Of a stretch of DNA of 64,000 nucleotides, positions 52,386-54,156 are shown piece after piece. Every line of letters begins with the position of its first letter. Position 1 is the first letter of the stretch. A program made the translations under genes and the position numbers. The notes below the pieces were generated by a model, which had not been told where the DNA came from, did no database searches, and saw only the letters and a program-made list of their open reading frames with translations. The stretch comes from Escherichia coli (GTDB taxonomy: Bacteria; Pseudomonadota; Gammaproteobacteria; Enterobacterales; Enterobacteriaceae), in the NCBI RefSeq assembly GCF_036507355.1, contig NZ_AP027877.1; one strand, 5' to 3'.

Positions 52386-52420
52386 GAAAACAAAAAAGCA
52401 CTGCCTAAGCAGTGCTTTTA
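52386..52420 (-). terminator. rho-independent terminator downstream of mepS
   Basis: Minus strand: hairpin AGCACTGC-TTAG-GCAGTGCT followed by TTTTTTGTTTT. Confidence 0.8.
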
Positions 52421-52464: not shown

Positions 52465-53031
52465 TTAGCTGCGGCTGAGAACCCGGCGTGCTTCGTTGTA
52501 ACGCTTCTTCCAGTACGGTTCATTCATGCTGGAAATAATAACACCACTGCTGGTGGAAGCATGGACAAACTGATTGTTGCCGATATAAATACCGACATGG
52601 CGTCCCGTTGAACCGGCACGGAACAGAACTAAATCACCCGTACGCAAATTACTGCGAGAAACAGATTTACCCATTTCCTGCTGTTCGTAAGTCGAACGCG
52701 GAAGTTCTAAGCCAAATTGCTCACGGAATGTACGCTGTACGAAACCAGAACAATCGATACCTTTTTTAGTGCTGCCGCCCAGACGATAACGTACGCCTTT
52801 CCAGTCAGCATACTGATCCATAATTCGCGATTTTACGTCGACATTACGAACCAGGTTTTCAAATTCATCCTGAGAAGCTTGCAGTGATGATGTTTCACTA
52901 CCCACTGCACGTGTCTCAGGATGCATATTCTTTGCGGTGTTATTTGCACTACATGCAGAAAGCAGAACCGCTACTGCAATCGCGGGAATCCCGCGCAAGA
53001 TATATCTCAAAATCGGTTGAGATTTGACCAT
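52465..53031 (-). CDS. mepS: murein DD-endopeptidase MepS (Spr), NlpC/P60 lipoprotein (188 aa)
   Basis: ORF track; lipobox LLSAC, catalytic Cys in DCSGFV. Confidence 0.93.
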
Positions 53032-53442
53032 GTTGTTTGTTTTCCCTTGAAGTCCTTAACGACAAATATCGTTATAAAAAAATGCCAAGCGACACGAGAC
53101 TAATTACCTGGGCATGTTGAAACAATTCCTTAAGGCCAAATCTGTGGACTAACGCACAAAATTATATGCTGTGAGGATAATCTACCGCCGAGGCAAAACG
53201 AGTTCGAGATTACCCGATTGGTGCGGTCTTGGCGAGCGGTTTTACATGATTTTTTATAAGAAAAAGTGATACAGAAAGTTAATAAGCGGGATTGGTCAAT
53301 TAAAGTACGATTGAGTGAAACGCATGCAATCCATTCATTTACTTAGAGAATGATTTTTGCTTTCGATGGATGAAAGCACGGTGCGCATCATCAGGATTAT
53401 CCTCACTATAAAAATAAACCTGATGATGTTAATTACTGTGAG

Positions 53443-54156
53443 TTATTTGTTTTGGAAATGTTTGTTTTTTCCCGGTAGTGATTTGTCAAAAAAGGTGATT
53501 AATCGATCACTTAATGGCGTCAGCAACACCCAGGGCAAACCGATCAATATCACGGTCATCGAACCGACAATGATGTCAGTAAACCAGTGTGCGCCAATCA
53601 TTACTCTGGGAAACGCAAAAACCACAAAAATAATAAGGGCGATAAGACCTGCAACTTTGCCGAAATAACGCCACATGAATGCCGAAAAAATAAGCAGCAT
53701 CATGCCGTGATCGCCGGGAAAGCTATCTCGTGAGGCATCTTTCGTGGGGACAGAGAGCAGTTCGCTGACGCGGTTAATATCGGTAAAAGTCAATGTTGGG
53801 CTGGCCCGTTTTACAGGAATTAATGCCTGACCCAGCTGGTTTAATACCACTGCAGTTAATAGCATGACCAGACCAATAATCACGATACGTCGTCTGCCTG
53901 GGGCGTTTTCTTTCAGCCAGAAACTCAGCATCAACATTCCCATCGCCAGCAGTGAACAACCGTCGAAAGCGCGATTGTTGGTCAATGCAACCAGCCACAA
54001 AAAGGCCTTACTTTCGACCAGTTTCTGATTAAAGAAATAAAAAATATCCGCATCAATCGGCAACCAGAATCCATGATTAACGGGAATATACCAGGAAAGA
54101 AACAGCGCGAGGCCGACAATATTCAACAACACTATTTGCGGCAAATTTTTAATCAT
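53443..54156 (-). CDS. lpxT: lipid A 1-diphosphate synthase LpxT (YeiU), PAP2 family (237 aa)
   Basis: ATG at 54154-54156 gives MIKNLPQIVLL...; the track ORF extends 12 codons upstream. Confidence 0.9.
   Translation of the reverse strand: MIKNLPQIVLLNIVGLALFLSWYIPVNHGFWLPIDADIFYFFNQKLVESKAFLWLVALTNNRAFDGCSLLAMGMLMLSFWLKENAPGRRRIVIIGLVMLLTAVVLNQLGQALIPVKRASPTLTFTDINRVSELLSVPTKDASRDSFPGDHGMMLLIFSAFMWRYFGKVAGLIALIIFVVFAFPRVMIGAHWFTDIIVGSMTVILIGLPWVLLTPLSDRLITFFDKSLPGKNKHFQNK

Follow-up and report, generated by a model that had tools for sequence, protein, structure and literature searches.

What is the function of a perfect inverted repeat in the gap between lpxT and mepS of Escherichia coli? 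The repeat lies in a stretch of 64,000 nucleotides from contig NZ_AP027877.1 (hereafter the window), a stretch that is 100% identical to several sequenced E. coli strains. A preliminary description of this DNA had offered three readings: an RNA processing or stability element, a protein-binding palindrome, or part of a long mepS leader. The window is reverse-complemented with respect to K-12 MG1655, and K-12 coordinates are obtained by subtracting the window position from 2323010; the lpxT stop (2269567 = 53443) and the mepS ATG (2269979 = 53031) anchor this conversion. On the minus strand the genes follow the order yeiR, lpxT (54156..53443), mepS (53031..52465) and pdeN, with 411 bp (53032–53442) between lpxT and mepS. 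The preliminary description had singled out this gap as unusually long (about 410 bp). The length is correct, and the gap is long because two mepS promoters and their leader occupy it. Table 1 lists the features of the region together with the stems of related genera.

Table 1. Features between lpxT and mepS in window coordinates, and arms and tail of the orthologous hairpins
Feature	Position	Strand	Description
lpxT CDS	53443..54156	minus	237 codons + stop (ORF list, RefSeq annotation of identical/near-identical E. coli genomes)
Spacer between lpxT stop and stem	53429..53442	minus	14 nt, contains TAATTAA at 53435..53429 (sequence, conservation profile, alignment)
lpxT 3'-terminal RNA hairpin	53386..53428	minus	43 nt, about 19 pairs, 3-nt loop
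Outer stem	53428..53419 with 53395..53386	minus	10 Watson-Crick pairs
U-U mismatch	53418/53396	minus	
Inner stem	53417..53409 with 53405..53397	minus	9 pairs, 3 of them G-U
Loop	53408..53406	minus	UAG
Steady-state RNA 3' ends	53382..53384 (K-12 2269626-2269628)	minus	2-4 nt past last stem pair
Candidate Rho loading/termination zone	53243..53381	minus	untranslated, C-rich, G-poor, before mepS P2 (composition)
mepS distal promoter P2	53200..53212	minus	-10 TAATCT 53212..53207, start site 53200 (-169 from ATG)
mepS P1	near 53091	minus	about 109 nt downstream of P2
Escherichia stem arms			CAUCAUCAGG/CCUGAUGAUG
Citrobacter stem arms			ACAUCAUCAGGGA/UCCCUGAUGAUGU
Stem arms of Enterobacter and relatives			AUCAGGGAUCG/CGAUCCCUGAU
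Kosakonia stem arms			AUUAGGG/CCCUAAU
Klebsiella stem arms			AAGGGAUC/GGUCCCUU
Klebsiella tail after hairpin			UUUUUAUC
Salmonella stem arms (unrelated stem)			UUACCUUCAGCGAUG/CAUCGUUGAAGGUAA

Inspection of the sequence and a repeat finder place both arms of the repeat exactly where they had been reported, with CATCATCAGG at 53386–53395 and CCTGATGATG at 53419–53428, 23 nt apart. The lpxT stop codon occupies 53443–53445 on the minus strand, and the stem begins 15 nt past it. Chance would put 0.025 perfect 10-bp inverted repeats with loops of up to 30 nt into a gap of 411 bp (p about 0.018). Across the whole window we counted 35 such repeats at about 15 places, compared with 2.2 in shuffles. 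Perfect 10-bp inverted repeats are a non-random class within this window. The spacing between the arms stands as described, but the 23 nt do not form an open loop: UUAUUUUUA and UGAGGAUAA contribute 9 more pairs to the minus-strand RNA. This upper half of the stem is A/U-rich and contains G-U pairs. Folding of the minus-strand transcript, which had been suggested as a check, afforded a stable hairpin with a minimum free energy of -21.6 kcal/mol for a 70-nt stretch (z = -3.84), a value matched by 0 of 200 shuffles. The energy of the hairpin amounts to about -20 to -24 kcal/mol, and a stable stem-loop shortly after a stop codon, one of the features of an intrinsic terminator, is therefore present.

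The region varies little within the species. The 70-nt segment is single-copy and adjoins lpxT in 5425 of 5426 complete E. coli genomes, and both arms are invariant in the sampled strains. The mismatch position is polymorphic, with U in the window, C in one strain and G in K-12, where the stem becomes a continuous helix of 20 bp. Strain 20A24 (L084, NZ_CP147044.1) carries an IS1 inside the 3' arm of the hairpin (window about 53394); this insertion, found in 1 of 5425 genomes, is a natural knockout of the stem. The spacer contains TAATTAA (53429–53435), which adds TAA stops in the other two frames and leaves all three frames closed within 17 nt before the hairpin. The segment AATTAAC between the lpxT stop and the stem is 80–90% conserved across genera. 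These additional stops ahead of the hairpin may have a functional role. Beyond the hairpin, at 53360–53378, some E. coli strains have another, small hairpin, GCUUUCAUCCAUCGAAAGC, with AAAAA after it. Its K-12 version (GCUUUCAUCUAUCGAACGC) is weaker, and it lacks conservation elsewhere.

Does a transcript end at this structure? The preliminary description had proposed mapping of RNA 3' ends, and published Term-seq and RNAtag-seq data already supply a precise end 2–4 nt after the stem. In the Term-seq data of Adams et al. (eLife 2021, PMC7815308, Supplementary file 1), a 3' end is called at K-12 2269627 (+) in LB at OD 0.4, and the printed sequence terminates in ...CCTGATGATGCGC, which puts the end 3 nt beyond the stem. 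The sole reason for its "orphan" label is its distance of 60 nt to the lpxT stop, as the cut-off for "primary" was 50 nt. It is absent from the LB OD 2.0 and M63 sheets of the same file and was called in one of three conditions (PMC7815308). An independent TRS study (Nat Commun 2023, PMC10687069) reports a dominant terminus at 2269628 within a peak at 2269624–2269636, annotated as "Primary lpxT", with a signal of 0.918 and adjusted p values of 1e-137 to 1e-175 in three replicates. Further sheets of this study list 2269626 and 2269628 with signals of 0.63 and 0.84, and its Supplementary Data 3 describes the K-12 structure as a 20-bp hairpin of -24.8 kcal/mol and gives 3 as the length of the longest U-run. 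That the lpxT mRNA has a 3' end at the hairpin is already known from these genome-wide maps.

We then asked how far this structure extends beyond E. coli. The comparison covered 80 lpxT loci, one genome per species across Enterobacteriaceae, which were picked by the LpxT protein and thus blind to the hairpin. The synteny of lpxT and mepS is preserved in 78 of these loci, and the length of the gap is near-constant (411–427 bp in most genera). A hairpin of -11 kcal/mol or lower occurs within 80 nt of the lpxT stop in 75 of the 80 loci (median -17.0 kcal/mol), at a median distance of 17 nt between stop and stem; only 11.7% of dinucleotide shuffles reach this energy (median -6.5 kcal/mol). The place of the hairpin is thus conserved, and the stems show compensatory changes. 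We aligned 66 related hairpins with plain MAFFT, on segments whose limits came from hairpin detection and with non-homologous hairpins omitted, a choice that favours the structure; 81.5% of the cells are paired, compared with 69% in shuffles and 25–43% with slid partners. Double changes affecting both sides occur in 12 of 15 pairs of this alignment, and its covariation score of 0.296 (versus 0.123) was attained by 0 of 500 shuffles. The preliminary description would have abandoned the element if neither transcript ends near the stem nor conservation of the palindrome had been found; ends are mapped, and the hairpin is kept across Enterobacteriaceae. Of the readings on offer, that of an RNA processing or stability element is supported by the RNA 3' end next to the stem and by a position that was kept through compensatory changes.

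Which strand carries the function is less evident from folding across the family. When hairpins were optimised independently on each strand, the sense strand folded better in 34 cases and the antisense strand in 25, with 23 equal (p 0.045); an earlier count of 56 versus 19 was biased, as the hairpins had been selected on the sense strand. G-U and A-C cells in the alignment number 33 and 35, respectively, an outcome without asymmetry, and the G-U pairs thus provide no family-wide argument. A clear sense-strand preference is seen for E. coli alleles only and is weak across the family. In Enterobacter, Lelliottia, Kosakonia, Phytobacter, Franconibacter and others (L023–L081), the hairpin is near-identical across genera (UCAGGGAUCGUUUUCGAUCCCUGA) and includes two GATC (Dam) sites, a conservation of sequence that seemingly goes beyond the needs of pairing. 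At L031, L035, L039, L054 and L073 the lpxT frame ends later, and the coding sequence reaches into or beyond the usual place of the hairpin.

The missing U-run raises the question as to what kind of terminator, if any, this hairpin is. The minus-strand tail after the stem reads CGCACCGU, with 1 U in 8, which agrees with the earlier observation that no U-run follows the repeat. A U-rich tract of about 7–8 nt directly 3' of the stem is absent in the window, and the terminator scan makes no call there. An RNA 3' end inside a U-tract, about 7–9 nt past the stem, is likewise absent, the published ends being much closer to the stem. The verdict that the repeat is not a canonical intrinsic terminator is therefore right for E. 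coli; the orthologous hairpin, however, carries a U-run in several sister genera. Among hairpins of -11 kcal/mol or lower, the eight bases after the stem contain at least 5 U in 14 loci, 4 U in 11 and at most 3 in 52. The U-rich group includes Klebsiella, Raoultella, Atlantibacter, Pseudenterobacter, some Lelliottia and some Enterobacter (E. cloacae), whereas the hairpins of Escherichia and Citrobacter have no U-run. In K. oxytoca, Atlantibacter hermannii and Pseudenterobacter timonensis, the orthologous hairpin is picked up by the consensus terminator scan. With its U-run, the hairpin of the sister genera should work as a conventional intrinsic terminator. By sequence comparison, the E. coli element corresponds, as an orthologue without U-tract, to a classical terminator hairpin of lpxT. 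Since the hairpins of sister genera possess this tract, the type of terminator has switched at the lpxT locus during evolution.

The window itself provides an internal contrast. The intrinsic terminator of mepS (AAAAGCACTGCCTAAGCAGTGCTTTT, 52394–52419) is canonical and bidirectional-looking, and its Term-seq end maps to K-12 2270620–2270621. Like the lpxT hairpin, this terminator consists of a hairpin soon after a stop codon and marks the 3' end of an mRNA. In contrast to the lpxT end at 2–4 nt, the mepS end lies about 8 nt past a GC stem and within the U-run. The lpxT hairpin also differs from a canonical terminator by its unusually long stem (43 nt), by the A/U-rich upper half of this stem and by its tail.

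A class of transcript ends with these properties has been described by Dar and Sorek (NAR 2018, 46:6797, PMC6061677), who found that Rho-dependent transcripts of E. coli end right after stable stem-loops that are devoid of a U-run. The RNA downstream of these stem-loops contains more C than G, and the tails are trimmed by PNPase and RNase II (PMC6061677). The same authors pointed out that a change in U content alone could switch the type of terminator (PMC6061677). The lpxT hairpin resembles their protective stem-loops in that it is followed by a precise end and has no U-rich tail. It also lies in the 3' UTR of the last gene of a transcription unit and precedes RNA with more C than G, although this likeness is one of composition: the ratio of C to G is 1.7–1.9 over 100–200 nt past the stem, and 78-nt windows starting at 53320 and 53300 contain 6–10% G. 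Rho dependence and trimming were demonstrated for the class of Dar and Sorek; for lpxT we infer both. The lpxT hairpin displays each sequence-level feature of this class, and we therefore favour termination downstream, probably by Rho, followed by trimming. A more general likeness is found in the BATTER preprint (10.1101/2023.10.02.560326), as the lpxT hairpin too is a stem-loop that is conserved across related species at the 3' end of a primary transcript. BATTER makes the statistical observation that conserved 3' stem-loops predict transcript ends regardless of factor dependence.

Taken as a whole, it is likely that the inverted repeat encodes the stem-loop at the 3' terminus of the lpxT mRNA, to which transcripts stopped further downstream, likely by Rho, would be trimmed back. 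The parts of this explanation are not equally firm: a stop by Rho or by other means downstream of the hairpin, followed by trimming, has a little better than an even chance, and release at the hairpin itself is unlikely. In this model the ribosome would halt at the lpxT stop while RNA polymerase would transcribe the 43-nt element, which would fold into a hairpin of about 19–20 bp. Since E. coli has no U-run at this place, the polymerase is probably not released at the hairpin. It would most likely continue into the untranslated C-rich, G-poor stretch ahead of the mepS promoters, and Rho would load in this stretch and terminate transcription diffusely. Removal of the tail down to the hairpin base would then fall to 3'-to-5' exonucleases (PNPase, RNase II), and a precise 3' end of the kind found in vivo would be left. 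The hairpin would in this way set the 3' boundary of the lpxT mRNA, shield it from exonucleolytic decay and part lpxT from the control region of mepS. On its downstream side, the lpxT 3' region is bounded by P2.

The element is thus an ordinary mRNA 3' stem-loop of a well-described kind. It sets the end of the lpxT mRNA, probably also its lifetime, and parts lpxT from the conserved mepS control region. The locus provides a clean comparative case for the prediction of Dar and Sorek, as one orthologous hairpin carries a U-run in some genera. In Escherichia and Citrobacter, where this run was lost, another way of ending transcription must serve. Hairpins without U-run right after stop codons should accordingly not be flagged as unexplained palindromes.

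The closest rival to this explanation holds that the hairpin is a non-canonical intrinsic terminator, with release of RNA polymerase at the stem or directly behind it and no need of a U-run, Rho or trimming. We judge this to be improbable, even though several observations speak for it. The hairpin is orthologous to terminators that bear a U-run in other genera, and the 3'-end signal is fairly strong, with values of 0.63–0.92 on the TRS scale on which the canonical mepS and yeiP terminators reach 0.96–1.0 (PMC10687069). The part of the Adams supplement available to us lists no Rho-termination region at 2269300–2270099 (PMC7815308). This negative carries little weight: expression of lpxT is poor, and with the stronger mepS promoters about 190 nt further downstream such a region could be masked. 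Dar and Sorek also consider weak intrinsic termination with Rho as a backup to be possible (PMC6061677). What argues against release at the stem is the tail with its single U in eight bases, for which the scan makes no call, and the distance of the mapped end from the stem, which is much shorter than the about 8 nt seen inside the U-run of the mepS terminator. The upper half of the stem, which is A/U-rich and includes G-U pairs, also fits poorly with this role.

Two other rivals would assign the repeat to the control of a gene rather than to the end of a transcript. The preliminary description had considered a protein-binding palindrome, in which case a dimeric regulator, for example of mepS or lpxT, would recognise the DNA, with the RNA hairpin being incidental. 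In line with this view, many genera share the sequence of the outer half-sites, ATCAGG and CCTGAT, and neither folding energies nor the counts of G-U and A-C cells show a family-wide preference for the sense strand. But the spacing of the half-sites shifts from 14 to 23 bp between genera, the stems of Salmonella and Atlantibacter are unrelated to the others and still occupy the same place, and double, compensatory changes are numerous. Stem sequences vary between genera with pairing kept, and the Salmonella stem is wholly different. The site also follows lpxT and precedes mepS P2 by at least 186 nt, the RNA 3' end coincides exactly with the base of the stem, and U-runs follow on the lpxT strand in 14 loci. 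We found no positive evidence for a protein-binding palindrome, know of no protein that binds the repeat, and regard this reading as very improbable. The second rival places the hairpin in the control of mepS, be it as part of a read-through leader, as an inner promoter-like site or through pairing in trans with the P2 leader. The supplement of Mendoza-Vargas et al. 2009 gives the spr start site at -169 with the boxes CGCTCGCCA and GGTAATCT, and Elgrably-Weiss et al. 2024 describe two mepS promoters, numbered 109 nt apart. Only these two have been reported, and both lie downstream of the hairpin. The suggestion that the repeat belongs to a long mepS leader finds no support for the same reason, since the hairpin lies 186–228 nt upstream of the distal start site P2 and thus outside the longest known leader. 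Two sequence features nevertheless point towards mepS: a promoter-like TTAACA-16-TATAGT (53432..53405), which scores 10/12 and overlaps the hairpin, and a perfect 12-nt complementarity between 53395–53406 and 53171–53182 (+19..+30 of the P2 leader). Shuffles give the 12-nt match a p of about 0.002, and the longest match among orthologues is 9 nt. Against this, the region contains 1 promoter-like site compared with 1.8 in shuffles, and both the -10 element and the 12-mer fall into the Escherichia-specific upper stem and are missing from E. albertii and other Escherichia lineages. In RNAcofold, the hairpin stays closed and does not pair with the P2 leader. Control of mepS by the hairpin is accordingly only a slight possibility, and the 3'-terminal stem-loop of the lpxT mRNA remains the reading we prefer.

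Several more specific candidates can be set aside. The embedded promoter TTAACA-16-TATAGT occurs at chance level (1 versus 1.8), is not conserved and has no reported start site. The 12-nt match between the hairpin and the P2 leader, present only in E. coli proper, is probably a coincidence. If the upper half of the hairpin, with its 3' inner arm GUGAGGAUAAUC, were regulatory after all, the stable lpxT 3' fragment or a read-through lpxT-mepS RNA might pair with the mepS leader; this scenario, read from the complementarity, is highly doubtful. If true, such pairing would couple the expression of a lipid A-modifying enzyme to that of a peptidoglycan endopeptidase. A REP/BIME or other mobile repeat was rejected, as no dispersed copies were found: the element occurs at a median of 1 place per genome, with a maximum of 2, always at lpxT. 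REP/BIME elements that stabilise mRNA at the 3' end are similar in being extragenic palindromes able to block 3' exonucleases downstream of a gene (PMC6061677). Unlike these repeats, the lpxT hairpin is single-copy beside lpxT and has no REP consensus. A scan of the window with Rfam 15 at permissive E-values returned only chance matches to eukaryotic miRNAs and snoRNAs (E 0.3–8), far below gathering. As to a small RNA derived from the 3' UTR, the E. coli hairpin has no U-tail of the kind expected for an Hfq-dependent 3'UTR sRNA, and the lpxT 3' UTR does not stand out when 3'UTR reads are set against CDS reads in the TRS study (PMC10687069). The lpxT mRNA has been reported as a MicA target, and we found no link between this targeting and the 3' hairpin.

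The remainder of the gap contains further features. Upstream of P2, several blocks with 90–100% conservation are found, among them those at about 53246–53276 (CTTTCTGTATCAC...TTCTTATAAAAAATC) and at about 53326–53340 (AAATGAATGG..TTGC). In Enterobacteriaceae other than Escherichia (L008–L070 and others), a Pho-box-like direct repeat CTGTCAT-N4-CTGTCAT lies just past the lpxT hairpin, about 70–90 nt after the lpxT stop and always 339–344 nt upstream of the mepS ATG. It reaches at least 12 of 14 matches in 40 of 80 gaps (10 of them perfect), a score attained by 2 of 400 shuffles. The repeat is absent from Escherichia, where scores are 7–9 and the homologous place in the window is 53355–53372. 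This repeat may mark a third, PhoB-type-regulated promoter ahead of mepS; our literature search found no paper tying mepS to PhoB.

At 53199–53217, a weak hairpin that resembles a terminator and has a UUUU tail overlaps the -10 element and the start site of P2. The same pattern was called in Atlantibacter (L076, 2438–2455), and this hairpin is probably conserved simply because it coincides with the promoter. Finally, Term-seq 3' ends are also mapped 4–6 nt upstream of the mepS start codon at 53035–53037 (K-12 2269973–2269975; PMC7815308). These ends were detected in all three conditions of Adams et al. and scored as not Rho-dependent, and more 3' ends lie inside mepS at 2270081 and 2270136 (PMC7815308).
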